Assembly: GCA_903921825.1 (NCBI GenBank)
Contig: CAIXRF010000077.1
Location: forward strand, 1 to 29,332
Length of the DNA: 29,332 nt
Direction of reading: 5' to 3'
Source of the DNA: an uncultured Candidatus Micrarchaeota archaeon
Lineage (GTDB): Archaea; Micrarchaeota; Micrarchaeia; Burarchaeales; Fermentimicrarchaeaceae
Below the pieces are notes generated by a model. That model saw only the letters and a list, made by a program, of their open reading frames with translations. It did no database searches and had not been told where the DNA came from. Shown here one piece after another: positions 1 through 25,138 of this stretch. The position numbers and the translations under genes are program-made. How positions within the stretch are numbered: position 1 is the stretch's first letter; each line of letters opens with the position of its first letter.

Positions 1-485
1 ACTGCCTGCCCGATTCGTCCTGCATAGGCGGCGTATGCCGTGGCCAGGACTCAGACGGCGACGGAATTCCAGACGCACAGGACAACTGTCCCTCCGTATA
101 CAACCCCAGCCAGGCGGATAGCGATGGGGATCGCGTTGGTGACGCATGCGACAACTGCGTATATACACCCAATCAGAACCAGGCGGACAGCGATGGCGAC
201 GGAGTCGGCAATGTATGCGACAACTGCCCCGGCACATATAACCCAAGCCAGGCGGACAGCGATGGGGACAGAGTTGGCGACGCCTGCGACAACTGCATTT
301 ATACTCCCAACGCAGACCAGGCAGACGCCGATAGGGATGGCATGGGAGATGCGTGCGACACGTGCACACAGAACCAACAGTGCACCTATCCGCCTGAGAC
401 CTGCGACGCCTGCGATGTTGACTGCGAAGGGCAGACGGCTGACTGCGGGCATGGAACCTGCCAACACGGAAGATGCGCGCCCTGA
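1..485 (+). CDS. C-terminal fragment (5' truncated by the window edge) of an adhesin-like protein with thrombospondin type-3 (TSP3) Ca-binding repeats. Paralog of the downstream gene.
   Basis: Frame 3 is open from nt 3 to the TGA at 483-485. It translates to ...[37 protein letters not shown]..., repeated DxDxDGxxDxxDNC motifs. Nt 1-117 are identical to 1535-1651 inside the next gene. The tracked ORF 40..522 is in the wrong frame. Confidence 0.6.
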
Positions 486-7416: not shown

Positions 7417-8736
7417 ATGAGGTCTATTATATTCGCTCTCGCCCTTGCGCTGCTCGTTTCAAGCGTTTTTGCAAAGCCGCCTGAGCTCCAGGCGCTTGCC
7501 TCCGTGACATCATTCGAGGGATGGAACTGCAATCCCACGGGCGGGCCATACACGTTCACCGCAACAATCTACATCGCCAACCCCTACAACGGCACGATGA
7601 CGGTAAATTACACCTATTACGATTACTATGCGGGAAGGGAAACGGATGGCGGCCGCGTGTGCATGATTCAGGCGAACAACGAGGACCACTGCTCGTTCAC
7701 AATCCCCGTCACGCTGGGCGGGGAGGCCGCGGGCAACGCGAGCATGTCCGTGAAGCTATTTGCGTCGATAGACGGGGTCAGCGAGCAGCCGGAGAAGCGC
7801 ATCGACTACTCGTTCACGCATGCGCCCGCATCCACGGAAACGAACTCCCTCGCGAGCATAGCCGCGACGCAGGCAAGGCTCGATGGGGAAAACGTCGCCC
7901 TCTCGTCCGCGTGCACCGCGAACGGCGTGTGCTGCGGGATGGCTGGGCCGCAGGAGAAGCTCTCCGCGGCTGGTAGCAGCCTTGCGCTCGCCAGGGAGCT
8001 TGTGAGGCAGTGCAAGTTCAGCGACGCGACCACTACAACCGCCGCAGCCTCCGCGGACATCAACGGTGCCAACTCGACTTACCATTCCACGTTCAGGCAG
8101 TGCCAGTCAGCCCTGAACAACTACGCGTTTGCATATGGCAACCTCACGCGCGCGAACGAGACGCTGCTTAAGCGCGCGGCATGCGGGATGAACGTTTCGG
8201 CCTCCCGCACGGAGCTCGCAAACTCGGAAAGGCTCCTGGCGCAGGGCGCCGACAGGATAGAGGCCGACGCCTACTCGGACGCGGTGCTTTACCTAGAGCA
8301 GTCGCTTGAGACCACGAACGTCACATTCACTCTTTCGAATGACTGCCCGCTGGCAGGCCTGGGCTCCGCCGGGAACGTTACCGGGCCATCCCAGTCGCAG
8401 ACGCCTCCTCCGCAGCAGGCACCCGGAGAAGACCCGCTGTCAAAGGTGATAGGCGCGCTCGGCTACATAGTGATAGCTGCGATAATCATAGTGGTTGGCG
8501 CGGCAATCTACGTTTCGCTGGGCAAGAGGCACCTCGAAGGGATGATTAGCCGCGGGCCGCGCAGCGGCGCGGAACACCCCGGCGCACCGCCATCGCCAGG
8601 CGCGGAGCCCTCCGAAGAGCTGCCCCCGATTGACCACACCAAGGTGGAAGAGGAGTTCCAGGAGTGGCTGAAGAAGAGCGAAGCCGCGGAAGAAGCCCCA
8701 ACTGAAAAGCACGAGAAGCGCGGCAAGAAGAAATGA
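7417..8736 (+). CDS. Surface protein with a Sec signal peptide, an NxS/T-rich ectodomain, a C-terminal TM anchor, and a Lys/Glu-rich cytoplasmic tail.
   Basis: [19 protein letters not shown] is the signal peptide. ...[29 protein letters not shown] is the TM helix. The tail ...[29 protein letters not shown] is charged. TATA ggctttatatagc is at ~7373-7385 and the RBS aggtga at 7405-7410. Confidence 0.6.
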
Positions 8737-8792
8737 GGCCCGCGGCAAATCCATTTGAGCAGCCGCGGCAAAAACATTCCAAGGTGGTCGAG

Positions 8793-10679
8793 ATGGGTCA
8801 TAAGAACGCATTAGTTGCAGCCATCCTTCTGGTCGTGCTCTTCACGGCACGCGCGCCCGCAGCATCCGCGCCTGGGACGCAGCCGGCCGCTTTCGTAATC
8901 CCGAATTTCGTGGAAAACGGTTCCGCCTGGCATCGTTTCACCGTGAATGTCTCAAATCCCGCGAACGGGACAGCCTACAACTACGTCATAATGATATGGC
9001 CCGAAGCGGCCGCTTGGGAAGACCCGGGCCAGAGCGGATGCAGCGGCGGAGTGGTCGGAGTAAACAACAATAGCATCTACTGGAGAACGAGCAACTGCCC
9101 GCCACTGGGCGGCAGCATGGTCTTCAGCTTCGGCAAGGCGCTCAACCCAGTAAGCCTGAACACCACAAAGACAGTGCAGGTCTATGTGAGCAACGACAGC
9201 GGCGCAACGCTGGTGCCAGTTTCACCAACGAGCGGCTCGCCTGGCATCTGCACCGGCCCGATGAACAACCTGCAGATATGCCAGTACCTGCCCCCTCCCC
9301 CGAAGGTCATCAGCTCCTGCCCATACACAATAAACGCGCTGGCCAACTACACATTGGACGACAACCTCACCGCGGCAAACACGACGTGCATCGGAGTTAT
9401 GAGCGGAGGCAGCGGCTCAATGATAGACTGCAAGGGCCGCACTATAAACGGCACCGGAATGGCATACGGCATCTACCTGAACGACGCGAGTGGAATCCTG
9501 CTGAAGAACTGCACAATTACGCACTTCGAACGCGGAGTCTACCTCCTCAATGCCAGAAACAACACCATCCAGGACAGCTCATTCAACCTGAACGGCATCG
9601 GCGCCTACCTCTCCTCAAGCAACAACAACTCATTCCGCCGCGACAACTTCTCGGCAAACATCAATGACGGCGTACTAGTGCAGACCTCAACTACCAACGT
9701 ATTCGCCACCAATGAAATGTGCGCCGACCCGACCTACGGCGCTTACTGCTCCACGGCGCAGACCGGCGGGAGCAACAAGTGCGACACGGCCAAAGTCTCT
9801 TGCACTGGAATAACGTGCGGGACCGCATGCCCTACGCCCGCGCCCACCCCAACCCCAACTCCAACCCCGACACCGACGCCTACGCCAACTCCAACTCCCA
9901 CGGTGACGCCTACACCCACCGCGACGCCAACTCCAACCCCAACCCCCACACCAACGCCGTCTCCAACACCTACTCCAACTCCTACGCCATCCCCAACTCC
10001 GGCGCCCGGAACAATCACGTCCTGTCCCTACACGATAAGCATGCAGGGAAGCTATGCCCTCAACTCCAACCTGCAATCATCCGGCGGAACGTGCATAGGT
10101 GTAGGGACGGGAGGCAGCGGCTCCACGATTGACTGCAAGGGCCACACAATAAACGGCAGCGGCACAGGCTACGGAATCTACCTCAATGGCGCGGGCAGCA
10201 ACACGGTCAAGAACTGTACAATAGAGCATTTCGACAAGGGCGTCTATTTCCTCAACGCCAGAAACAACACCATCCAGGACAGCAACTTCATCCTCAACAG
10301 CTACGGCGCCTACCTCTCCTCAAACAGCAATGGCAACAGGATAACGAGCTGCGTCATGAATGCCAACGCCTACAAAGGGCTGTTCGTGCAGGCGTCGCGC
10401 GCCAACAACGTGAGCGCCAGTGAGGTTTGCTACAATGGCGACCCAATCTACGACCTCTACTGCTCCGCCGCGCAGGCGGGCGATGGCGGGAACTACTGCA
10501 ACACCACGAGAGCCCGCTGCAGCGGGATAACTTGCGGCTCGCCCTGTCCAGTTGTGACTCCAGCGCCCACCCCATGCATACCTGATGGGGACCCCTGCGG
10601 CGAAATCCCGTGCTGCTCAAGCTACTGCCATGGCGGGCTGGTATGCGGCCCAATGGTAACCCCAACGCCCACACCATAG
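8793..10679 (+). CDS. Secreted modular protein A: N-terminal unknown domain, two Cys-framed PbH1 (parallel beta-helix) modules separated by a long (PT)n linker, and a small Cys-rich C-terminal knot.
   Basis: Signal peptide [26 protein letters not shown]. The module ITSCPYTI...GGSGS(M/T)IDCKG(R/H)TINGTG.GYGIYLN...[34 protein letters not shown]..... occurs twice. The second-module version differs in places. The first module ends in [10 protein letters not shown]...[41 protein letters not shown]. The track start 8733 is replaced by ATG 8793 because the upstream word aaggtggtcgag ATG is shared with the next gene. Confidence 0.8.
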
Positions 10680-10712
10680 CCGATGCTCTGCCCTTTCTTG
10701 GTGCTGAGCGTT

Positions 10713-10733
10713 GCCGCCCTGAAAGCTATTTAA
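10713..10733 (+). promoter_or_regulatory. Conserved promoter block gccgccctgaaagctatttaa (TATA ctatttaa) upstream of modular protein B.
   Basis: The 21-mer matches 14199-14219 at 20 of 21 positions (a/c differs at position 10). It sits 37-44 nt upstream of ATG 10770. Confidence 0.5.
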
Positions 10734-10769
10734 GCAACCACCTGCAAATCAAACTCCAAGGTGGTCGAG

Positions 10770-13700
10770 ATGAATCCTAGGTCCGTTGTAGCGTCTATCC
10801 TGTTTGTCGCACTGTTTGCCGCGTTCGCTGCTGCGGCGCCTCCGGTTACCCACCAGCCGTCGCCAGTATGTTCCCAATACAACGAGACCAGCACAGGCTG
10901 TACGCCATATACCGGGCCACTCCTGAGTGATTCAGACGTCCAGAAAGAAGTCGGTGCCATTAACCAGAAGATAACGGAGCGAAATCTCAACTGGGTTGCA
11001 GGGGACAACTGGGTCGTGCGGCTGCCCGAAGCGGAGAGAACGCGCCTCCTGGGCGCAAAGCTATTTTCCCCGCAGGAAATGGAAGCGGCGGGCGTAAAAC
11101 CACTGTCTTATACTCCGGGCACAACGTTGCCGGTCGCTCTTGACTGGAGGAATAACGGAGGCAACTGGACCACGTCGGTAAAGAACCAAGGTGGATGCGG
11201 CTCGTGCTGGGCCTTTTCCGCGGATGGGGTCGTAGAGTCGCGGATGAACATCGATTTGGGCATCCCGCAATTCAATTATGTCCTTTCCGAGCAGGACCTT
11301 GTTTCCTGCTCCGGTGTAGGAAGCTGCAGTGGCGGCTACGAGGACCTGGCTATTGGCTATATTAATAATACTGGAACCACCAACGAATCCTGTTTCTCGT
11401 ACCAGGCATCCGACGTGTCATGCGGACTGAAATGCGCCAATTGGCAGGACCAGAAGGTGCGTGTAACCAATTATAGCTATGTCGCTGCCGGTGCCAACGC
11501 CATAAAACAGGCACTGAACACCTATGGCCCAGTTACCGTATCCATGCCTGTTTTTTCTGACTTCTTTGACTATTCCGGAGGCATTTATACCAGAACGTCT
11601 GACTATCTTGAGGGCTTCCACGCAATAGACATCGTCGGCTACAACGACACTGGCGGATACTGGATTGTTAAAAACAGCTGGGCTACCACCTGGGGTGAAA
11701 ACGGTTATTTCAGGATGAGCTATTCAGAAGATACAAACTATTCGACTTGGACTTGTTTTACTGTGTATGCCAGCTGTTCTCAGCCAGGCTCCTTTTTCAT
11801 GGACCAGAGCGTTGCCGTCATGAGCACAAACGCGCCAAGCCTGTTCAACTTCGGGTCGGTTTCGGGCTATGTGTTTGACGACCTAGCGCAGGGGATTGCG
11901 AGCGCAATTGTCAACGTGACGAATGCAAGCGGCTCGCCAACGAACCTCACGAATGCAAGCGGTTACTACATAATCGGTGTCGTTCCCGCCGGAACCTTTA
12001 GCATCAGCGCGAGGAAAAATGCCTCTCTTGGCACCAACACAACCACCGTGACCGTGGTTACAAACACCACCACCAATGTCAACTTCACTCTGTATGCGCC
12101 AACTCCGATTCCAACGCCAACCCCCGTGGTAATCAGCAGCTGCCCCTACACAATAAGCGCCCCAGGTGCCTACGTCCTGTCGTCAGACGTCAATTCGGCA
12201 AGTGGCTCGTGCATCGCCATATCCACGGGAGGCAGCGGCTCCACGCTTGACTGCCAGAACCACACAATAAACGGCAGCGGCACAGGCTACGGAATCTACT
12301 TCAACAGCGCAAGCGGCAGCATGGTAAAAAACTGCACTGTGAAGCGCTTCGCGCGCGGAGTCTACCTCTCCAGTGCGCGCAACAACACCATCCAGGACAG
12401 CGCATTCAACTCGAACAACTACGGCGCCTACCTATCCTCAAGCAACAACAACTCATTCCGCCGCGACAACTTCTCGGCGAACACCGCTGACGGCGTCTAT
12501 GTGGCGAGCTCAACTACCAACGTATTCGCCACTAACGAAATGTGCGCCGACCCGACCTACGGCGCTTACTGCTCCACTGCTCAGACAGGCGGGAGCAATA
12601 CCTGCAACTCATCCAAAATCTCTTGCAGCGGAGTAACGTGCGGCTCACCCTGCCCAGGCACGACTCCAACGCCTACACCCACTCCAACTCCAACACCCAC
12701 GGTGACGCCCACACCTACCGTTACGCCAACCCCCACTCCAACTCCGACTCCCGGCCCACCCACGCCCACCCCAACAGCTACCCCCACGCCAACTGCGACT
12801 CCAACTCCAACACCAACTCCAACCCCGACGCCCACCCCCACTCCAACTCCAGCGCCCGGAACAATCACATCCTGCCCATACACGATAAACGCCCCAGGTG
12901 CCTACATCCTAACGTCAAACATCAATTCGGCAAGCGGCACCTGCATTGCAATATCCACAGGAGGCAGCGGCTCCACGCTTGACTGCCAGGGCCACATGAT
13001 AAACGGCAGCGGCACAGGCTACGGCGTCTTCCTCAATAGCGCGGGCAGCAACACAGTCAAGAACTGCACTGTGAAGCACTTCGACAGGGGCATCTACCTT
13101 TCCAACGCCAAAAACAACACCATCCAGGACAGCTCTTTCAACGTAAATGCCTTCGGCGCCTACATCTACACCAACAGCAACAACAACTCTTTCCGCCGCG
13201 ACAATTTCTCAGCTAACACCAACAGAGGCGTCTATGTGATTTCCTCAACTACCAACGTATTCGCCAGCAACGAGATATGCGCCAACCCCACCCAGGACGC
13301 CTACTGCTCGGTGGCGCAGACAGGCGGGAGCAACACCTGCAACGTATCCAAAATCTCTTGCAGCGGAGTAACGTGCGGCTCACCCTGCCCAGGCACGACT
13401 CCAACGCCTACACCCACACCCACTCCAACCCCGACCCCGACGCCTACGCCCACTCCAACGCCCACGCCAACAGTAACACCAACGCCCACGGTTACGCCTA
13501 CGCCTACCGTGACGCCAACTCCGACTCCAACACCGACACCCACGCCAACTCCTACTCCAACCCCAACGCCGTCTCCAACGCCAAGCGGGACGGTCATTAC
13601 AACCTGCCCATACACAATAAGCATCCCAGGCACTTACATCCTCAGCGGAAACCTCAATTCGGCGAGCGGGACGTGCATAGGAATGACATCAGGGGGCAGC

Positions 13701-14141
13701 GGCTCCACGCTTGACTGCCAAAACCACACGATAAACGGCAGCGGCACCGGCTACGGAGTTTACCTAAATAGCGCAGGCAGCAGCACAATCAGGAACTGCA
13801 CAATCGAGCACTTCGACAAGGGCATCTACCTCTCCAACGCCAAGAACAACACCATCCAGGACAGCAACCTCATCGTCAACAACTACGGCGCCTACCTAGT
13901 GGCGAGCAGCAACGGCAACAGGATAACGAGCTGTGTCATGAACGCCAACACCTACAAGGGGCTGTTCGTGCAGACGTCGAGCACCAACAACGTGACCGCC
14001 AGCCAGACTTGTTTCAATGGCGACTCGATGTACGACCTCTATTGCTCCACGGCGCAGAGCGGGAACGGAGGCAACATCTGCACCACTTCGAGGGTTTCCT
14101 GCGGCGGAGTGACATGCAGCAGATCCTGCATCCCCGCCTAG
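10770..14141 (+). CDS. Secreted modular protein B: signal peptide, possible propeptide, papain-like C1A cysteine peptidase, CarbopepD_reg-like beta-sandwich, then three PbH1 modules joined by (PT)n linkers.
   Basis: Signal peptide [24 protein letters not shown]. The peptidase motifs [22 protein letters not shown] (Cys active site), [35 protein letters not shown] (His/Asn) and LSEQDLVSC read like papain itself. A CarbopepD_reg-like stretch (GYVFDD...[34 protein letters not shown]) follows. Then come three ~180-aa modules matching those in genes A and C. The track start 10761 is GTG. ATG 10770 follows the aaggtggtcgag word. Confidence 0.85.
12110..14141 (+). repeat. Three tandem module-plus-linker units (period ~733 bp) with high nucleotide identity. 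The same module recurs in genes A and C.
   Basis: Modules start at ~12131, 12865 and 13597 (atcagcagctgcccctacacaataagc...). Related copies start at 9309, 10017 and 14335. The string ggaggcagcggctccacg(c/a)ttgactgcca recurs at ~10110, 12229, 12961, 13693 and 14437. Confidence 0.75.
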
Positions 14142-14150
14142 CCAAAGCAC

Positions 14151-14172
14151 CTTCTTTTCCTTTTCTTTCCGT
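14151..14172 (+). terminator. T-rich tract after protein B. Candidate terminator.
   Basis: The sequence cttcttttccttttctttcc follows directly after the TAG at 14139-14141. Confidence 0.3.
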
Positions 14173-14198
14173 CTTGGCAGCGGCAGCTTTCCGGCGCG

Positions 14199-14220
14199 GC
14201 CGCCCTGCAAGCTATTTAAA
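14199..14220 (+). promoter_or_regulatory. Conserved promoter block gccgccctgcaagctatttaaa (TATA ctatttaaa) upstream of modular protein C.
   Basis: It matches 10713-10733 at 20 of 21 positions (c/a differs). It sits 34-42 nt upstream of GTG 14254, with a caaggtga word in between. Confidence 0.5.
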
Positions 14221-14253
14221 CTACGTGAGGCAAAAAAGAGTCAAGGTGATTTC

Positions 14254-16062
14254 GTGAGTCCTAGACCCCTGTTTGCGCATGCATTCTTGTTCATCGCACT
14301 TCTTGCGGCTTCCGCTGCAGCACCCGGGATAGCAATCACTTCCTGCCCGCGCACGATAAACGCCCCAGGCACTTACGTCCTCACCTCGGACCTAAACTCT
14401 CCGGGCGGGACGTGCATAGGCGTGGGCGCAGGCGGCAGCGGCTCCACGATTGACTGCCAGGGGCACCTAATCAGGGGCCCCGGCGCTGCGGGCTACGGGC
14501 TCTATCTCAACGGAGCGAGCTACGTTACGGTGCGGAACTGCACATTCCGGAGCTTCGACCGCGGAATATACCTCTCCTCAGCAAGGTACAACACCATTCA
14601 GGACAGCTCTTTCAACGCGAATAATATCGGCGCATACATCTATTACAACAGCAACAACAACACGTTCCTGCGCAGCAACTTCTCGGTGAACCGCGACAAA
14701 GGAGTATACGTATTCACATCCATAGGCACCGTATTCACCACCAATGAAATGTGCGCTGACCCAACCTACGACGCCTACTGCTCATCGGCGCAGACCGGCG
14801 GGAGCAACACTTGCGACACTGCCCTGGTCTCCTGCTCTGGCGTCACGTGCACGCATGCATGCCCAACCCCAGGGCCGACCCCCACGCCGACCGCCACCCC
14901 CACTCCTGTTCCGCCGACGCCCACCCCAACTCCGACTCCCGGCCCACCGACGCCCACCCCCACAGCCACTCCAACGCCCGTTCCGACGCCACCAGCATGT
15001 GCCTCGCCTGGCGGGGTTGTGAGCACCTGCCCATGCACCATCAACGCGAAGTCAAACTACTCCCTAAACCACAGCCTGACCGCCAACGGCACCTGCCTCA
15101 CATTCAACACAGGCGCAAGCAATTCCACGCTTAACTGCAACAACTTCAGCATCACCGGTCAGAACAACGGATACGGAATCCTCATGAACGGCGCCTATTA
15201 CATGAACGTGACGAACTGCAACGTGACCAATTTCACCTACGGCTTCTACCTGAGCGGGGCCAGCAGCAACAACATCCGCGCAAGCAGGGTATACCTGAAC
15301 ATATACGGCTTCTTCCTGAGCTACGCCTCCAACAACAACATCACCAGCAACACCGTCTGCTACAACCCAGTGGACCTCTACTGCGAGGCTTCACCGGGCA
15401 ACGCAGGCAGCGACGTCTACGACCGGAACACCGGGTGCGTGAGCATCACCAAGAGCGCATCCTGCCCGCCAGCCCCAACGCCTACGCCAACTCCCACGCC
15501 TGCGCCCACCCCTACTCCAGGCCCAATCACCATAAACGCATGCCCATTCACCATAAACAGCGCAGGGACATACCGCCTTACCCATGACCTCACAGCGAAC
15601 GGGACGTGCATAGGCATAATGAGCGGAGGAAGCGGCGCAATACTGGACTGCTACGGCTACGCCCTCTTCGGGAACGGCACAGGCTACGGGATTTACATGC
15701 AGACGAACAACGTCCTTGTCACCAATTGCGAAGTCAGCGGCTTCGACCGCGGCATTTACATGAAGAGTTCCAGCAGCAACAACTTTTTAGCAAACCTGCT
15801 CGAGCGCAACAACATCGGTGCCTACCTCTACGGCAGCAACTACAACCACTTCGACAGCAACATATTCGTCTCCAACCGCGACCGGGGGATTTACGTGCTG
15901 ACCTCGAGCAACAACCAGTTTTACAACGGCGAGATATGCTACAACGGAAACAGCAACAACGATGTCTACTGCTCAACTGCCCAGACTGGCGGGCTCAACG
16001 TCTACTGCGACATCTCGCGGATTTCCTGCCCCGGCGTAACCTGCGATGTGGGCTGCCCCTAG
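14254..16062 (+). CDS. Secreted modular protein C: one canonical and two diverged PbH1 modules with (PT)n linkers.
   Basis: Signal peptide MSPRPLFAHAFLFIALLAASAAAPG. Module 1: [44 protein letters not shown]...[24 protein letters not shown]...[41 protein letters not shown]. Later modules (TCPCTINAKSNYSL..., NACPFTINSAGTYRL...) are more diverged but keep the NxS/T-rich beta-helix periodicity and the terminal ...YCSTAQTGG...SCPGVTCDVGCP. GTG start. Confidence 0.8.
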   Translation: MSPRPLFAHAFLFIALLAASAAAPGIAITSCPRTINAPGTYVLTSDLNSPGGTCIGVGAGGSGSTIDCQGHLIRGPGAAGYGLYLNGASYVTVRNCTFRSFDRGIYLSSARYNTIQDSSFNANNIGAYIYYNSNNNTFLRSNFSVNRDKGVYVFTSIGTVFTTNEMCADPTYDAYCSSAQTGGSNTCDTALVSCSGVTCTHACPTPGPTPTPTATPTPVPPTPTPTPTPGPPTPTPTATPTPVPTPPACASPGGVVSTCPCTINAKSNYSLNHSLTANGTCLTFNTGASNSTLNCNNFSITGQNNGYGILMNGAYYMNVTNCNVTNFTYGFYLSGASSNNIRASRVYLNIYGFFLSYASNNNITSNTVCYNPVDLYCEASPGNAGSDVYDRNTGCVSITKSASCPPAPTPTPTPTPAPTPTPGPITINACPFTINSAGTYRLTHDLTANGTCIGIMSGGSGAILDCYGYALFGNGTGYGIYMQTNNVLVTNCEVSGFDRGIYMKSSSSNNFLANLLERNNIGAYLYGSNYNHFDSNIFVSNRDRGIYVLTSSNNQFYNGEICYNGNSNNDVYCSTAQTGGLNVYCDISRISCPGVTCDVGCP

Positions 16063-18890: not shown

Positions 18891-19823
18891 ATGCAAAAAC
18901 GACTCGCGCCCCCAGCGACGGACGAAGACGCAAGGGCGCAGGCAGCCATATCCCGGAGAGCCATAAAGCTTGAGGAGAGCCGCCTGAACATAACCGCGCT
19001 CCCGGAGAGATATAAAAAATCAATGAAGTGGCTCTCCGACATGGCTAAGTTTAACGCCGATAGAGCGAAGGTCCAGAAGCTGAAAACAATCACGGTGCAC
19101 GTAATAGGAGTTGGCGGGGAAGAAGGCCCCCAGGTCAGTGAATTGATTCAAGCGCTGAAGCCGTTTGCCAGCGAGCTCGTAGTGCATGTTTCCGACATAC
19201 GGAAAGACTTGGCCGAGGCCGCTTCAAGGAAGGCCGGGGAGGAGTTTCCAGACGTGCGCATCATATCACACAATTTGGACGTAACCGCGCCAACGCCTGC
19301 CTCGGAAATTAACGAAAAGGCGGATTTCGTCATATGCACGAACGTCATTCAGCACGTGAATCCCGCGGAGCACAGATGGCTCGGGTTCTTCCACGTCTCT
19401 TCCCTTGTCAAGGTCGGGGGATACGTGCTCATCGGCGGGAAGGACGCGGAATTGCCGCCGTGGGGGAAATTCCACAAAAGCGAAATAATTTTTGCGATGC
19501 TATCCACGAGCAGGCATCAGGAATACGAGTCTTCGCTGCCCGATTTCGGCCTGGAGCCGAAGGCCATTATTGAAGAACAATACCCTCTGTTCGAACAAAA
19601 ATTCATCGAGGGAGAAAAGCGCTCGGCACAGAGGCCTGATGGTTATGGAAGCCCTTACGCTAGCGCCGGTTACGAGGGCATTCTCCTAGAAAAGACAGGG
19701 GAGCCAACGATGGCGTTCAAAGACTTGTGGAAAAGAATCGTGGAGATGGGAAAGGCTGCAGCCGAAAGGGAGGAAGCGGACGATAAGCCCGCGCCCAATA
19801 GTCCGGGCAAAGGGCTTGGATAA
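18891..19823 (+). CDS. Hypothetical protein with a possible Rossmann-like, SAM-methyltransferase-like core. Low confidence.
   Basis: The tracked ORF is 310 aa. Weak MTase-like motifs: VHVIGVGGEEG ... ADFVICTNVIQHV ... VGGYVLIGG. GC and codon usage are lower than in neighbouring genes. It is preceded by a 117-nt AT-rich spacer. Confidence 0.45.
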   Translation: MQKRLAPPATDEDARAQAAISRRAIKLEESRLNITALPERYKKSMKWLSDMAKFNADRAKVQKLKTITVHVIGVGGEEGPQVSELIQALKPFASELVVHVSDIRKDLAEAASRKAGEEFPDVRIISHNLDVTAPTPASEINEKADFVICTNVIQHVNPAEHRWLGFFHVSSLVKVGGYVLIGGKDAELPPWGKFHKSEIIFAMLSTSRHQEYESSLPDFGLEPKAIIEEQYPLFEQKFIEGEKRSAQRPDGYGSPYASAGYEGILLEKTGEPTMAFKDLWKRIVEMGKAAAEREEADDKPAPNSPGKGLG

Positions 19824-19943
19824 GGGCGACCGCGGAAGCAGCCAGCTCATCCTGAAGCCAAAGCAGTAGGGGTCGTGGCGTAACCTGAGGAAAAATTAGG
19901 ACTTAAACCGGAAAGAACCCGGCGTTTTTGCACTTTTACTAAA

Positions 19944-20099
19944 TGCCATGGGTGGGATTTGAACCCACGACTTCCAGAATACACCGCAGCGAGCGGAACA
20001 ACGCCCACTACTTCACTTTATCATCGCCGCAAAGCGGCTCATCACTCATCAAGCTGAGCTTATGAGTCTGGCACTCTAACCAGGCTGAGTTACCATGGC
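19944..20099 (-). tRNA. tRNA with anticodon CAU (elongator Met, or Ile2 if C34 is agmatidinylated), carrying a ~80-nt intron at the canonical 37/38 position. No CCA is encoded.
   Basis: On the minus strand the acceptor is GCCATGG/CCATGGC and the D arm is ACTC-AGCCTGGTTA-GAGT. The anticodon arm is CCAGA-CTCATA[intron]A-TCTGG and the T arm is GTGGG-TTCAAAT-CCCAC, with discriminator A. Mature length is ~75 nt. G1:C72 and a non-GGG anticodon stem argue against an initiator. Confidence 0.8.
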
Positions 20100-20123
20100 G
20101 CAAAGGTTAGTTGGGTGGTTGAA

Positions 20124-20135
20124 ACTTTAAATAGG
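20124..20135 (-). promoter_or_regulatory. TATA box (tatttaaag on the minus strand) for the tRNA gene.
   Basis: It is centred ~30 nt upstream of the tRNA 5' end at 20099. It is the only AT-rich word in this GC-rich region. Confidence 0.5.
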
Positions 20136-20136
20136 T

Positions 20137-20400
20137 GAGCGGCGGGCCATAGTCCACCTTGAGTTTTCGCAGCATTCGACTAAGCGGCCGAAAGGCCTTG
20201 CGCCACTATCCCCCGAAGGGGGCTGCCTCCAGCCGGGCGCGTTTCATCCGCCGCAGCCCAAGTCCGCTTGCGCGTCATGCTTAAAGGGCTGCGGAGGTTC
20301 GTTTCTGTTCCCGGCCCGGGCCTTAAACCCGTGCAGGCAGTTCATGGCGGGCGGAACTTCCTCACGGGGCGAACCCCGCGTCAGCTGCGGCCCACCGCTC
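20137..20400 (-). ncRNA. Candidate structured ncRNA of ~260 nt. Class unassigned: SRP RNA, an RNase P-like RNA, or something else. Strand uncertain, minus favoured.
   Basis: This 264-nt GC-rich stretch is crossed only by two long opposite-strand ORFs (20344..21129, 20362..21048) that I regard as GC-driven artefacts. A 12-nt terminal helix pairs 20137-20148 (gagcggcgggcc) with 20389-20400 (ggcccaccgctc) at 11 of 12 positions. Internal GC hairpins have tetraloops (ggccGAAAggcc, cccccGAAGggggg, cggggCGAAccccg). The palindromic TATA words TTTAAATA at 20125-20133 and 20422-20431 flank it. The right-hand one is ~25 nt from the 20400 end. Confidence 0.3.
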
Positions 20401-20421
20401 GGGATACATCACCCAGCAGGA

Positions 20422-20431
20422 ATATTTAAAT
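20422..20431. promoter_or_regulatory. Palindromic TATA box (atatttaaat) that could fire in both directions: leftward into the candidate ncRNA and rightward into the leaderless 20453 gene.
   Basis: It is 22-31 nt upstream of ATG 20453 and ~25 nt from the 20400 end of the terminal helix. Confidence 0.4.
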
Positions 20432-20452
20432 CCAGCAGCGCAAATCAGGGGT

Positions 20453-20734
20453 ATGGCATTCGACACCTTGACTTCGGCGCTGTTCATCGGCGTATTCGTA
20501 ATCGCAGCAATAATCCTGCTGCTAGTGGCATGGAAGCTGTTCAAGGGGCTGCTCAAGCTCGCGATGGCGATGGTCCTGAATTCCATAGTGGGCCTCATCG
20601 CGCTGGGCATCCTCTTCCTGCTGGGAGTGAAGGTGCCGCTCACCGCGGGCGTAATCCTCTCCATCGCGCTCTTCGGCCTCGGGGGCCTCGGCACAATTCT
20701 CATCCTCATGTTCACCGGGATAAAGGTGGGCTGA
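20453..20734 (+). CDS. Small hydrophobic membrane protein (3 predicted TM helices).
   Basis: 93 aa, almost entirely hydrophobic helices: FIGVFVIAAIILLLVAWKLF ... LNSIVGLIALGILFLLGV ... GVILSIALFGLGGLGTILILMF. It abuts the next ORF with a 0-nt gap. Confidence 0.5.
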   Translation: MAFDTLTSALFIGVFVIAAIILLLVAWKLFKGLLKLAMAMVLNSIVGLIALGILFLLGVKVPLTAGVILSIALFGLGGLGTILILMFTGIKVG

Positions 20735-21088
20735 ATGATACGCAGGAGCGGCACTGGGCCGGCAAAAGTCGTGCTAGGCATCCTCTTTGCAGTGGTCGGG
20801 GTGTTCCTCTCGCTCTTCGGGGGCATTTTCGCATACCTTCGCCTCCTCGGCGGCCCCGCGGACTTCACCGTCCTGGGCTTCGGCATCATAGCGATGTTCG
20901 TCGGCTTCTGGATGATTTTCGACGCATTCTTTACCAACGTGGAGGTTCGCGTCGGCAACCTCGAAGAGCTGGCGCTCGCTTTCGGGAAAAGGGTGGAGAA
21001 GTGCGCGAAGTGCGGTGCGCTCAGCCCCAACGGGGCGAAGTTCTGCATGGCGTGCGGGAAGGAATTCCCGCGGCACCCGAAGCCCTAG
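20735..21088 (+). CDS. Membrane protein with a C-terminal zinc ribbon.
   Basis: Two TM helices, then CAKCGALSPNGAKFCMACG (CxxC-x10-CxxC). Confidence 0.55.
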   Translation: MIRRSGTGPAKVVLGILFAVVGVFLSLFGGIFAYLRLLGGPADFTVLGFGIIAMFVGFWMIFDAFFTNVEVRVGNLEELALAFGKRVEKCAKCGALSPNGAKFCMACGKEFPRHPKP

Positions 21089-21094
21089 CGCCCC

Positions 21095-21832
21095 TCAGAG
21101 CCTTAGCTTTCCCCGCTGGAAGTCATTGATTACTAGCCGGGCCATGGTATCGAGGTCCGGCTCGCCGCCTTTCAGCAGCCTTCCCCTCCGCTTGGCAATC
21201 TTTATTAGAAGCTTCTCGGCATCGTCAGTTTTCCTCAGCGGCACATCATAGTGGGCCGCAGCCGCCTCCATACTCCTCCCGATTATCTCGAGCGCGATGG
21301 GCTCCGGCGAAGGGATGCTCTGCGCTGCGACCGCGGACTTGAGCACGAGGCTCACGCCCCTCTCGCTCTGCGGGACGACTCCCGGCGTGTCATAAAGGAG
21401 GATGTCGCCGAGCGTGACCCACTGCACGTTCTTCGTCTGGCCCGGCACCGGGGAAACCTTCGCTGCCCTCCTTCCCGCGAGCCTGTTCATCAGCGACGAC
21501 TTCCCAACATTCGGGTAGCCGACGACGCCCACCTTTGCGGGCCTGCGCGCAGTCGCCTTCCTTATCTCCTCAAGCAGCCACGGGATGCCCTCGCCCGTCT
21601 TGCCAGAGACTGCGACCCACCTATAGCCATGAAGCGTGCGCGGCAGCGCTCCGAGCTCCTTCTCCCCGACCAGGTCGCTCTTGGTCACCACGACAATCAT
21701 CTTGCTCAGGTACTTCTTGAGCGACCAGTTCAGCGTCCCCCATGCGTCGCGCGCGTCTACGACCTGCAGCACCACGTCGCACTCGCGCAGCACGCGCTTG
21801 AATACAATCCACCTCTTCAGCCATTCTTCCAT
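21095..21832 (-). CDS. Circularly permuted GTPase (YlqF/RbgA/Nug1-like ribosome-biogenesis GTPase family).
   Basis: G-motif order is G4-G1-G3: VVTKSDL ... VGVVGYPNVGKSSLMN ... LYDTPG. The N-terminus DVVLQVVDARDAWGT is typical of the family. Confidence 0.82.
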   Translation of the reverse strand: MEEWLKRWIVFKRVLRECDVVLQVVDARDAWGTLNWSLKKYLSKMIVVVTKSDLVGEKELGALPRTLHGYRWVAVSGKTGEGIPWLLEEIRKATARRPAKVGVVGYPNVGKSSLMNRLAGRRAAKVSPVPGQTKNVQWVTLGDILLYDTPGVVPQSERGVSLVLKSAVAAQSIPSPEPIALEIIGRSMEAAAAHYDVPLRKTDDAEKLLIKIAKRRGRLLKGGEPDLDTMARLVINDFQRGKLRL

Positions 21833-23510: not shown

Positions 23511-24455
23511 ATGAGGATAATCGCCTTCCTCGGCTTCGCGCTGCTGCTTGCCGCTCTTGCGGGAGCATGCGTCTCAATCCCAGTGGTTGAGGTAGGGGAT
23601 GCAAGCCTCAGCGTTGATGTCTGGGCGCTGGGGAACGCAACCACCGAGCAGTTCGACTCATTCATGGCAAGCCAGTATGCCGATGCCTGGACAGGCCTGA
23701 ACCTCACCTACATGGAGAAGGCCGCAATCTGGGATTTCGTTAAGAACGGCTATTCTGCCAGAAAAATGTCGCCTGCCGAATACTCCGAATTCCTTGCGAA
23801 TGCGGATGCGGTTAACAATAATCCCCTGAACTGCGGCAATTACCCCGCAGTCGCGTACAGGAGCAACTTCGCCGGCTACGTCTACAGCGATGAAAGCGAG
23901 AAGAACGCGCTTTGCGCAAGCGCGCCACGCCAGGCATGCGCCGGCGGAACCTACCACCCCTTCATGAACGACCTGCCCCAGCCTGTTTTTGGCACCGTCG
24001 GCGCAGGCATCACAAACGGCACGGAAACTTCGGACAACACGGGCACAGTAGGCGCGACAGCAGTGAAAACGCCATCCACCACATCTTCCATTGCGGGCGG
24101 CCAGATGGATTACAAATATGTTGCAGGGGCCGCAGTCGCAATCATTCTCCTCGCCGGCTTCGTCGCTTTCTCAATAACGATGAGGAGGCCTGAGGAGGAA
24201 GGCATTGACGAGGCGCTCGTGCACAGAGCGCTCTCCTCCGAAACGCGCATCGGAATCATGAGCGAGCTCCAGAGGGGCGAGCGCACGCCTACGGACCTGA
24301 GCACGAGGCTGGGGAAGAGCAAGGCGACGGTGGTGGAGCACCTCGACCGGCTCATGGATGCCGGGTTCGTGGAGAAGCGCGAAGAGGAAGGAAAGAAGTT
24401 CGTGTTCTACAGCCTAACTTCGAGGGGAAAGGCAGTCCTGAGGAAGGCAGGCTAA
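23511..24455 (+). CDS. Membrane-anchored transcription regulator: signal peptide or N-terminal anchor, an ~190-aa extracytoplasmic domain, one TM helix, and a cytoplasmic ArsR/TrmB-like winged HTH.
   Basis: N-terminus MRIIAFLGFALLLAALAGA. TM helix YVAGAAVAIILLAGFVAFSI. C-terminus ...ALSSETRIGIMSELQRGERTPTDLSTRLGKSKATVVEHLDRLMDAGFVEKREEEGKKFVFYSLTSRG, a typical wHTH. TATA-like ctattaaa at ~23472-23479. Confidence 0.68.
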   Translation: MRIIAFLGFALLLAALAGACVSIPVVEVGDASLSVDVWALGNATTEQFDSFMASQYADAWTGLNLTYMEKAAIWDFVKNGYSARKMSPAEYSEFLANADAVNNNPLNCGNYPAVAYRSNFAGYVYSDESEKNALCASAPRQACAGGTYHPFMNDLPQPVFGTVGAGITNGTETSDNTGTVGATAVKTPSTTSSIAGGQMDYKYVAGAAVAIILLAGFVAFSITMRRPEEEGIDEALVHRALSSETRIGIMSELQRGERTPTDLSTRLGKSKATVVEHLDRLMDAGFVEKREEEGKKFVFYSLTSRGKAVLRKAG

Positions 24456-25138
24456 AGCCTAAGTCTCTTCTTCACCTTGCTCCTCAGCTGTGCAAGCTTC
24501 GGGAATATGCGAGTAAGCGCTGGTGAGTAGCTGCCATGCGCGCTCGTCCTGCGCGAGAGCAGCGCCTTCCTGAACCCCTCAAGGTCGCCGGCGTCGGCCT
24601 CAGTCCATGCCCTCCCGACTTCCCACGTGGTATGCGAATCGCTGCCTGCAGTTTCCGCAAGCCCGTGCTTCTTCGCAAACTTCTTCGCCTCTTCGTTGTG
24701 GCGGGGGTCTATCACGCGCGGGTTGAACACCTCCACGGCATCCACCTTGCGCGCAAGCCTGGCCAGCTGCTCCGGGGGCAGCACGTCCCTGAACGAGTCG
24801 AACGGATGCGGCAGGACCACGATTCCGTCCTGCTTCCTTATCTCATCAATGACTTCCAGCGGCGTCCTGTTCATCCCGCTTATCTCCTCATCAAGGAAAA
24901 GGCCGATTATCTCACAAACCCGCTTTCCCTGGGGCTTCACCCCGATTTCCTCGCCCTTTATCACGAGGATTCCGCTCCCCCTTGCGGCCTTCTCGACCTC
25001 TGCACAAGCAGAGAACCTGCTGTGGTCCGTCACTGCGACGCCCTGCAGCCCCTTTCTTTTTGCGATGAGCGGCAGTTTCTCCGGAGGCACCCAGGAGTCC
25101 GGCGAGTGGTTCGTGTGGATGTGGAGGTCCGCCTTCAT
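24452..25138 (-). CDS. PHP-domain (polymerase/histidinol-phosphatase family) metal-dependent phosphoesterase.
   Basis: From ATG 25138: MKADLHIHTNHSPDS...GVAVTDHS...GEEIG...VLPHPFD...AGSDSHT, the conserved His/Asp metal ligands of PHP. The tracked ORF's first 73 aa (to 25357) are an out-of-frame extension overlapping the upstream gene, so I trimmed them. The gap to the upstream gene is 4 nt. Confidence 0.8.
   Translation of the reverse strand: MKADLHIHTNHSPDSWVPPEKLPLIAKRKGLQGVAVTDHSRFSACAEVEKAARGSGILVIKGEEIGVKPQGKRVCEIIGLFLDEEISGMNRTPLEVIDEIRKQDGIVVLPHPFDSFRDVLPPEQLARLARKVDAVEVFNPRVIDPRHNEEAKKFAKKHGLAETAGSDSHTTWEVGRAWTEADAGDLEGFRKALLSRRTSAHGSYSPALTRIFPKLAQLRSKVKKRLRL

Follow-up and report, generated by a model that had tools for sequence, protein, structure and literature searches.

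Ribonuclease P (RNase P) is the universal enzyme by which tRNAs are trimmed at their 5' ends. Its RNA subunit is described by a scheme of five conserved regions, CR-I to CR-V, and carries in helix P4 a bulged uridine (U69 in Escherichia coli) that is a universally conserved, characteristic feature of these RNAs (PMC1874661). Among the architectures known from archaea, type A (Pyrococcus furiosus, Methanothermobacter) possesses P8 and an L15-P16-P17-P6 module. Type M is defined by the loss of P8 and of L15, P16, P17 and P6 and by an uninterrupted P10/11 (PMC1874661, PMC3579882), and has been reported from Methanococci and Archaeoglobi only (PMC3579882, PMC7191817). Type T of the Thermoproteaceae (RF02357) is likewise a reduced archaeal RNase P RNA, without nearly the whole specificity domain, that is, P11, CR-II, CR-III and P12 (PMC7191817). 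Here we analyse a 29,332-nucleotide (nt) stretch of DNA from an uncultured archaeon (contig CAIXRF010000077.1; the whole stretch is called the window below), in which the interval running from 20400 to 20137 on the minus strand, 264 nt long, is almost certainly the gene for the RNA subunit of an archaeal RNase P. The RNA is a fresh member of a known RNA family and represents no novel RNA class, and its reduced architecture is type-M-like by design, probably not by descent.

A scan of the whole window with Rfam returned only two matches, a tRNA at 20099 to 19944 and, on the minus strand from 20400 to 20137, the archaeal RNase P RNA family RF00373, with a score of 95.7 bits (E-value 9.6e-26; curated gathering score 84 bits) and an alignment that covers the model from position 1 to 288 of 288. 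A permissive local scan (19800-20700, both strands, E-value up to 10) recovered RF00373 over the same interval with an E-value of 3e-27 and as the sole family there, the remaining weak matches all lying inside the tRNA gene; the type T model RF02357 was not among the families reported for the RNA interval, where RF00373 was the sole RNase P family. A clade covariance model, R1, built from ten close sequences, scores the RNA at 249.9 bits. All five conserved regions are present in canonical order (GAGGAAGUUCC, ACAGAAACGA, AUGAAACG, GCUUAGUCGAAUGC and ACUCAAGGUGGACUA), with CR-II and CR-IV in agreement with the consensus. The fold is more stable than expected by chance on the minus strand (z = -2.8, with one of 200 shuffles as good) and less markedly so on the plus strand (z = -1.9). 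The identification draws on family membership, strand, ends, helices (through covariation), the absence of a coding signal, and the conservation of promoter geometry and synteny, all of them shown in this analysis.

A first-pass annotation, made from the letters of the window alone, had already delimited a candidate noncoding RNA gene at 20137-20400, and the RF00373 match has exactly these ends. Its proposal of a minus-strand transcript starting at a terminal helix agrees with the strand and ends of the family match; the complementary ends that it had noticed pair at all 12 positions in the minus-strand RNA, including one G.U pair (U7:G258), and the minus strand is favoured because the same position is a C/A mismatch on the plus strand. 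That annotation had left the RNA class open and suggested that it might be novel, a suggestion superseded by a full-length RF00373 member above the curated threshold; the search with Rfam RNase P models that it recommended proved decisive. A "possibly novel noncoding RNA" can thus be annotated as the organism's essential RNase P RNA, with strand, ends and promoter fixed.

The anatomy of the RNA is listed below from 5' to 3', with RNA positions equal to 20401 minus the window coordinate; all features lie on the minus strand.

20137-20400, minus strand: RNase P RNA gene, 264 nt, from the RF00373 match, the R1 match and covariation
20389-20400, minus strand (RNA 1-12): 5' strand of P1, pairing with 20137-20148
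20384-20388, minus strand (RNA 13-17): 5' strand of P2, pairing with 20169-20173 (RNA 228-232)
20363-20380, minus strand (RNA 21-38): P3 hairpin with a UUCG loop
20350-20363, minus strand (RNA 38-51): CR-I and the 5' strand of P4, GAGGAAGUUCCGCC
20345-20349, minus strand (RNA 52-56): 5' strand of P5, pairing with 20201-20205 (RNA 196-200)
between P5 and P7, minus strand: J5/7, UGAA
20335-20340, minus strand (RNA 61-66, CUGCCU): 5' strand of P7, pairing with 20223-20228 (RNA 173-178, AGGCAG)
20317-20331, minus strand (RNA 70-84): P9 hairpin with the loop UUAAG
20310-20316, minus strand (RNA 85-91): 5' strand of P10/11, pairing with 20231-20237 (RNA 164-170) in 7 contiguous base pairs (bp)
20298-20309, minus strand (RNA 92-103): CR-II (J11/12), AACAGAAACGAA
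20248-20297, minus strand (RNA 104-153): P12, containing a kink-turn (K-turn)-like motif and a GCAA loop
20238-20247, minus strand (RNA 154-163): CR-III (J12/11), AUGAAACGCG
20210-20222, minus strand (RNA 179-191): extra hairpin, here called Px, CCCC-UUCG-GGGG, between the 3' strands of P7 and P5
RNA 192-195, minus strand: AUAG linker after Px
20186-20197, minus strand (RNA 204-215): P15, a bare 4-bp hairpin, GGCC UUUC GGCC, whose pairs covary
20174-20185, minus strand (RNA 216-227): CR-IV, GCUUAGUCGAAU, in agreement with the Rfam consensus CGCuuAGucGAAUGC and conserved in relatives
20149-20164, minus strand (RNA 237-252): CR-V and the 3' strand of P4, ACUCAAGGUGGACUAU, the P4 strand itself being RNA 243-250 (20151-20158)
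20137-20148, minus strand (RNA 253-264): 3' strand of P1, 12 of 12 positions pairing with the 5' strand

The GC-rich stems that had been read from the plus strand (ggcc-gaaa-ggcc at 20186-20197, ccccc-gaa-ggggg at 20210-20222 and gggg-cgaa-cccc near 20366-20377) do exist, and correspond to P15, Px and P3, with loops UUUC, UUCG and UUCG on the transcribed strand. P4, the long-range pseudoknot helix between CR-I and CR-V, consists of RNA 43, 44 and 46-51 paired with 243-250 (8 pairs), with one bulged U (U45 or U46) that corresponds to the universal uridine; all of its cells are paired in the alignment of relatives, with G:C, G:U and A:U at pair 49:245, U:A and U:G at 46:248, and a C:G to U:A change in an Iainarchaeum metagenome-assembled genome (MAG; GCA_028714235.1, locus L109). 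Double compensatory changes affect 8 of the 12 pairs of P1 in 20 distinct relatives, 6 of 7 pairs in P3 (a helix of highly variable length across relatives), 4 of 5 in P5, 4 of 5 in P9 and 6 of 7 in P10/11. P2 and P5 are paired in 100% of cells, P2 with an A:U to G:C change at one pair, and the basal pairs 104:153 and 105:152 of P12 covary. Outside the helices, the P9 loop motif YUAAG/UCAAG is common to relatives, including those that contain P8; CR-II is invariant across all aligned relatives, although ACAGAAACGA belonged to the pattern by which they were retrieved; and the CR-III motif UGAAACG is kept in the 10 closest relatives (alignment A3) and nearly so in wider sets. More than 100 metagenomic RNase P RNAs (loci L002-L108) have in P4 the variant GAGGAAGUUCC where the consensus is GAGGAAAGUCC, with GGRCUA on the 3' side as compensation; they comprise both reduced and type-A-like RNAs and come in part from human gut metagenome contigs (e.g. 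L005).

P12 holds the sole GNRA loop of the RNA, GCAA, and beneath it a K-turn-like motif read from the sequence at RNA 119-141 (20260-20282). The motif is laid out as a 3-bp C-stem (AAG/CUU), a 3-nt bulge (CAU), the tandem pairs G125.A138 and A126.G137, a further 3 bp (CGC/GCG) and the GCAA loop. As P12 is the L7Ae site in the archaeal RNase P RNAs that have been studied (PMC5499556), L7Ae would be predicted to bind here.

Relatives were collected from metagenomes with the pattern GAGGAAGTTCC-N35-65-ACAGAAACGA, which yielded 107 loci; 18 of the 20 tested exceed the Rfam gathering score. The closest RNA (L004) is 89% identical and others range down to about 55-60%. R1 finds 100 matches in 100 sources, and they fall into two size classes. 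About 45 are short (230-300 nt); wherever their flanking motifs could be placed, the P15 region measures 9-18 nt. The other class, of about 50, is longer (290-325 nt for the most part), and those of its members that could be measured have 41-55 nt in the P15 region and 57-59 nt between CR-I and CR-II, a type-A-like layout. A scan of contigs with an overly specific pattern (CR-IV...ACTCAAGG) gave as its sole match an unrelated Thermoprotei MAG (L001) with a canonical type A RNA, used here for contrast only. A second, weak R1-type match at L046:10748-10864 (plus strand; 21.5 bits, 117 nt, 34% GC), 1.4 kilobases (kb) from the real gene on that contig, is probably spurious.

Covariation, which the first-pass annotation had proposed to look for in homologues, supports the helices. 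An alignment of the 21 closest sequences (A5) was scored over 55 pairs from nine helices that include P4; pairing is found in 95.6% of its cells, compared with 79.3 ± 0.8% after column shuffling and 35-47% with slid partners. Changes on both sides are seen at 35 pairs, against 21.1 ± 2.2 expected, and on each of five measures the observed value lies beyond all 500 shuffles. In a MAFFT-only control of ten sequences, not fitted to structure and covering six helices only (P1, P2, P4, P5, P10/11 and P15), the paired fraction is 97.1%, compared with 86.2% after shuffling and 29-46% after sliding, and 18 pairs have changed on both sides. RNAalifold agrees, recovering P1, P4, P5, P9, P10/11, the base of P12 and P15 without guidance. 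Since MAFFT alone misaligned P3, P7, P9 and P12, the covariance model was built, and P7 was examined by co-folding of the junction segments. It is present, with differing sequence, in nearly all of 17 distinct relatives (variants include CUGCCU/AGGCAG, GGCAG/CUGCC, GGCU/AGCC, GCUU/AAGC, CGCC/GGCG and GAUAUC/GAUAUC) and weak (3 bp or irregular) in L034, L015, L084 and L078. Three RNAs (L103, L054 and L048) seemingly have no 3' strand of P7, the 3' strand of P10/11 abutting that of P5 (alignment A2, columns 60-130 and 200-245); a local hairpin stands where the 5' strand of P7 is expected, another rebuild of the specificity-domain junction.

The surroundings of the gene are conserved together with it. 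The elements concerned are as follows.

20423-20430, minus strand: putative TATA box of the RNase P RNA gene, TTTAAATA, at -30 to -23 from the RNA 5' end
20126-20133, minus strand: putative TATA box of the tRNA gene, TTTAAATA, at -34 to -27 from the mature 5' end, in a T-rich stretch 3' of the RNase P RNA
19944-20099, minus strand: tRNA(CAU) gene (RF00005, 55.6 bits), with an 83-nt intron after the anticodon

Two palindromic TATA copies had been noted in the first reading of the locus, and both are there, TTTAAATA at 20126-20133 and its partner at 20423-20431, where TTTAAATA is read from 20430 to 20423 on the minus strand. The assignment of the right copy to the RNA and of the left copy to the tRNA is borne out by spacing that is conserved in homologues: each of the 19 close homologues checked, as well as L109 and L111, has a TATA-like box at a similar distance (roughly -36 to -22), a T-rich tract occurs within a few nt past the RNA 3' end in most of them, and TATA-like boxes stand at the matching distance from the tRNA in L095, L079 and L109. 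In the window, the gene order is helicase, GTPase, 117-aa (amino acid) gene, 93-aa gene, RNase P RNA, intron-containing tRNA(CAU). The Iainarchaeum MAG shares the order CDP-alcohol phosphatidyltransferase, PHP protein, helix-turn-helix regulator, helicase, GTPase, 116-aa gene and 91-aa gene, and continues with an RNase P RNA (L109:13024-13295; 184.5 bits with R1, 98.3 bits with RF00373) and then an intron-containing tRNA(CAU). In L095, L079/L074 and L004, too, this tRNA comes after the RNase P RNA.

The window is a complete contig in NCBI and ENA and is also contained in a 49.5-kb ENA contig of ERZ1426835. The Hef-like helicase, 1.4 kb away from the RNA gene, has its best named homologues in "Candidatus ainarchaeum sp." (62% identity) and many more in Micrarchaeota (47-55%); Iainarchaeota and Micrarchaeota both belong to Nanobdellati, i.e. 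DPANN. Because of these helicase homologues and the gene order shared with the Iainarchaeum MAG, the host is very probably a DPANN archaeon related to Iainarchaeota. An affinity to Thermoplasmatales, suggested by an NCBIfam match (DGGGPL reductase) far below its cut-off, is outweighed by the same helicase homologues and synteny, and a pantothenate-pathway enzyme whose named homologues are mostly from Thermoprotei (about 60% identity) was treated as uninformative.

Several points weigh against identification of the locus as a working RNase P RNA gene. The RF00373 score is merely 12 bits over the threshold, while the canonical type A RNA of L001 reaches 202.5 bits. The 5' strand of P4 reads GAAGUUCC in place of the usual Rfam consensus GAAAGUCC. 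The A5 alignment was fitted to its own model, so that its pair counts are somewhat inflated. Finally, RNase P protein genes were not found in the window, in which not every open reading frame (ORF) was scanned; the PHP-domain protein at 24452-25138 was tested as a candidate Rpp30 and rejected. The low score has an explanation in the architecture, because P8 and P15-P17 are missing and the Px region is misaligned; posterior probabilities in the cmscan alignment are low in the P8, P15 and Px regions, and the alignment is unreliable at Px. The unusual P4 strand is compensated by GGACUA on the 3' side, where the consensus has GGCUUA, so that the helix is maintained. The inflation of the A5 counts is answered, for six helices only, by the MAFFT-only control.

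The best surviving alternative is nonetheless very improbable. It would make the locus a decayed or redundant copy, a pseudogene, while the working enzyme would have its gene at another locus or have given way to a protein-only RNase P (HARP). It can appeal to a family score less than half that of a canonical RNA (95.7 against 202 bits), to the loss of P8 and of L15, P16 and P17, and to a view limited to 29 kb of the genome. A decaying copy does not account for a reduced design that is held by compensatory changes down to about 60% identity, for the integrity of all five conserved regions and of the bulged U in P4, or for a conserved promoter box and synteny, and a survey found HARP to be absent from all DPANN genomes examined (PMC6380272).

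The reduction itself might be questioned, the RNA being then a canonical type A molecule whose P8 and L15/P16/P17 appear missing through an artefact of alignment, in keeping with the low posterior probabilities at P8 and P15. We give this reading hardly any weight, since the sequence for these elements is physically absent. Merely GCA (RNA 67-69) separates P7 from P9, so that 3 nt stand where P8 would be, and the CR-I to CR-II spacing is 44 nt, as against 57-59 nt in type-A-like sequences retrieved by that search. L15, P16, P17 and P6 are absent, and P15 is a plain 12-nt hairpin (GGCC-UUUC-GGCC): from J5/15 CAAG, just 3' of P5, to CR-IV there are 12 nt, themselves the 4-bp hairpin, as against 41-55 nt in the type-A-like sequences. 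The total length is 264 nt, against 290-325 nt. P10/11 is uninterrupted, with 7 contiguous covarying pairs; in type M this helix is also described as elongated, which 7 bp may or may not be.

Equally slight is the chance that another structured RNA, SRP (signal recognition particle, 7S) RNA or a member of a new class, merely resembles RNase P RNA. The first-pass annotation had pointed out that archaeal 7S genes often stand beside tRNA genes, and the region is indeed GC-rich and highly structured, but the hint came to nothing: no SRP model matched at an E-value up to 10 on either strand of 19800-20700, nor did any other family apart from RF00373 over the interval, and the RNA possesses, with covariation, all five conserved regions and the P4 pseudoknot. 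There is next to no case for a GC-rich coding sequence, or for the 5' part of the ORFs at 20344-21129 (plus strand) and 20362-21048 (minus strand), which are more than 220 aa long and overlap the 5' 40-57 nt of the RNA, since neither ORF has a Pfam match or is called by public gene callers, no gene is called over the RNA interval in public assemblies containing it, substitutions relative to L004, L021, L095 and L070 are spread evenly over the three codon phases (e.g. 12/9/6 and 23/22/20), indels measure 1, 2 and 4 nt, and conservation tracks the helices and not a reading frame. Public callers instead call the 93-aa and 117-aa genes, with which the long ORFs overlap and which are both conserved in synteny, so that the dismissal of the long ORFs as artefacts in the first reading was right, as was its preference for an RNA gene over coding sequence given the family match and the lack of codon periodicity. 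Where it had foreseen, for a mistaken call, no Rfam match, no covariation and codon-periodic substitutions, the locus has the family match, covarying helices and evenly spread substitutions.

Beyond its losses, the RNase P RNA has acquired a helix. In canonical RNAs the 3' strand of P5 directly follows that of P7 (Rfam consensus), whereas here the 13-nt hairpin Px and the AUAG linker are inserted between them. A hairpin with an unrelated stem and a stable tetraloop occupies the same site in four relatives:

L004: CUCCC-GCAA-GGGAG
L021: UGCCGC-GCAA-GCGGCA
L070: GCGUUC-GCAA-GAACGC
L109: CAGGC-GAAA-GCCUG

Px is identical in L111 and absent from the L102, L079, L052, L095 and L017 groups, which have a 5-11-nt linker there. 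As judged from this comparison of stems, Px is a real, subclade-specific helix. It was not found described for archaeal types A, M or T in the literature examined. The closest analogue is P5.1 of bacterial type B RNA (Bacillus subtilis), also a junction hairpin at P5/P7 in an RNA without P6, P16 and P17. The two hairpins sit on opposite strands of the junction, P5.1 of B. subtilis on the 5' and Px on the 3' strand; P5.1 has a partner in P15.1 and Px has none, and the two share no sequence similarity. In type B, the contact between L5.1 and L15.1 is stabilising (PMC5066622), and by analogy Px may have a role resembling that of P5.1.

On the upstream side of the gene, the palindromic TATA element, AATATTTAAATCC over 20421-20433, separates the RNase P RNA gene from the divergent 93-aa membrane-protein gene. 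The RNase P TATA box lies 21-28 nt before the ATG of the latter at 20453, at promoter distance from both genes, and this arrangement is retained in L004 and L109; it is plausible that the box is shared with a divergent leaderless mRNA of the 93-aa gene. A different setting is seen in L054:1591-1838 and L103:1607-1852 (also L035 and L090), where a reduced RNase P RNA is found about 100 nt downstream of a 23S rRNA gene; the L054/L103 group has no TATA-like box and a conserved upstream ...GACTTTCATATTAAC, which suggests co-transcription with the rRNA operon.

Downstream, the tRNA(CAU) gene probably forms its own transcription unit. ARAGORN found no tRNA in the window, presumably owing to the intron; as the Rfam tRNA model found tRNA(CAU), the ARAGORN result was set aside. 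G1:C72 suggests an elongator methionine tRNA or Ile2 and not an initiator. Copies in relatives are found at L004:134-289, L079:4892-5047 and L109:13427-13596. The 5' part of the intron is conserved in relatives and contains motifs resembling C/D boxes (GUGAUGA ... GAUGAU); L079/L074 show an unambiguous D box, CUGA. The interval 20012-20051 gives weak, sub-threshold Rfam matches to the archaeal C/D small RNAs sR5 and sR23. L079/L074 have a second intron in the D arm of the same tRNA, and L095 possibly one in the T arm. In L004, a 123-aa ORF (L004:338-709, minus strand) lies between the RNase P RNA and the tRNA, which are separated by 440 nt compared with 37 nt in the window.

Farther out, a 310-aa protein encoded next to the tRNA (18891-19823, plus strand) has a weak, sub-threshold match to a methyltransferase domain, and a search of 5.8 billion clustered proteins recovered no homologue apart from itself. 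Three large proteins encoded in succession (648, 1126 and 602 aa; 8733-16062, plus strand) contain parallel beta-helix or NosD-type repeats; one of them is weakly similar to an S-layer glycoprotein family, and the trio are probably cell-surface proteins.

Taken as a working gene, the locus would be expected to function as follows. A transcript of about 264 nt would start from its own TATA promoter (TTTAAATA at -30 to -23), its two ends forming helix P1, and would fold into the universal RNase P core, comprising a catalytic domain (P1-P5, P15, CR-I, CR-IV and CR-V, with the P4 pseudoknot and its bulged uridine) and a specificity domain (P7, P9, P10/11, P12 and CR-II/CR-III). Assembly with Pop5, Rpp30, Rpp21, Rpp29 and L7Ae is to be expected, as in every archaeal RNase P studied, and the enzyme would then cleave the 5' leaders of precursor tRNAs, one likely substrate being the intron-containing tRNA(CAU) 37 nt downstream, by way of a short leader. 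L15 of type A RNA interacts with the 3' end of the tRNA. Because both L15 and P8 are missing here, activity would be expected to depend on the proteins, as it does for type M RNAs.

Compared with the described archaeal forms, the window RNA has the same core as type A (P. furiosus, Methanothermobacter and L001), namely P1-P5, P7, P9, P10/11, P12, CR-I to CR-V and P4 with its bulged U. It differs in the absence of both P8 and the L15-P16-P17-P6 module, which type A RNAs, 285-325 nt long in this data set, possess. Unlike type T, it has a specificity domain that is complete except for P8, with CR-II, CR-III, P10/11 and P12 in place. The type A and type T architectures are ruled out by the element spacings and by the presence of the specificity domain, respectively. 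With type M it has in common the lack of P8 and of L15, P16, P17 and P6, the hairpin P15, the uninterrupted P10/11 and membership of RF00373, in which Rfam groups types together. L7Ae binds type M RNA in P12 (PMC5499556), where the window RNA has its K-turn-like motif, though type M has a double K-turn and here there is a single one. The size is similar as well, 264 nt here and 235-258 nt in listed type M genes (PMC7191817). The window RNA departs from type M in its Px hairpin and in a P4 5' strand of GAAGUUCC in place of GAAAGUCC. The hosts differ too: those of type M are Methanococci and Archaeoglobi, whereas the window RNA probably comes from an Iainarchaeota-like DPANN archaeon, which places it outside the reported distribution of type M. 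No account of the architecture of DPANN RNase P RNAs turned up in the literature searched, which is absence of evidence only.

Because the host belongs to neither Methanococci nor Archaeoglobi, the losses were probably independent, and the simplest reading of the resemblance to type M would be convergent reduction. Tentatively, and with slightly more doubt than belief, we propose that Iainarchaeota-like DPANN archaea lost P8 and L15/P16/P17/P6 on their own and that one subclade (the window RNA, L004, L021, L070, L109 and L111) gained a junction helix with a GNRA or UUCG cap, maybe bracing the reduced catalytic domain in the manner of P5.1. If true, archaeal types A, M and T would be joined by a fourth architectural variant, and the reduction would be convergent; a type-M-like form from an unexpected lineage, with an additional helix, is of moderate interest to RNase P specialists, and natural minimal variants of this kind help to ask which RNA elements the archaeal proteins can replace. 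The locus adds to the evidence that the P8-less, L15-less and presumably protein-dependent design extends beyond Methanococcales and Archaeoglobus and recurs, in this case with a junction helix added, in small-genome, probably DPANN, archaea.

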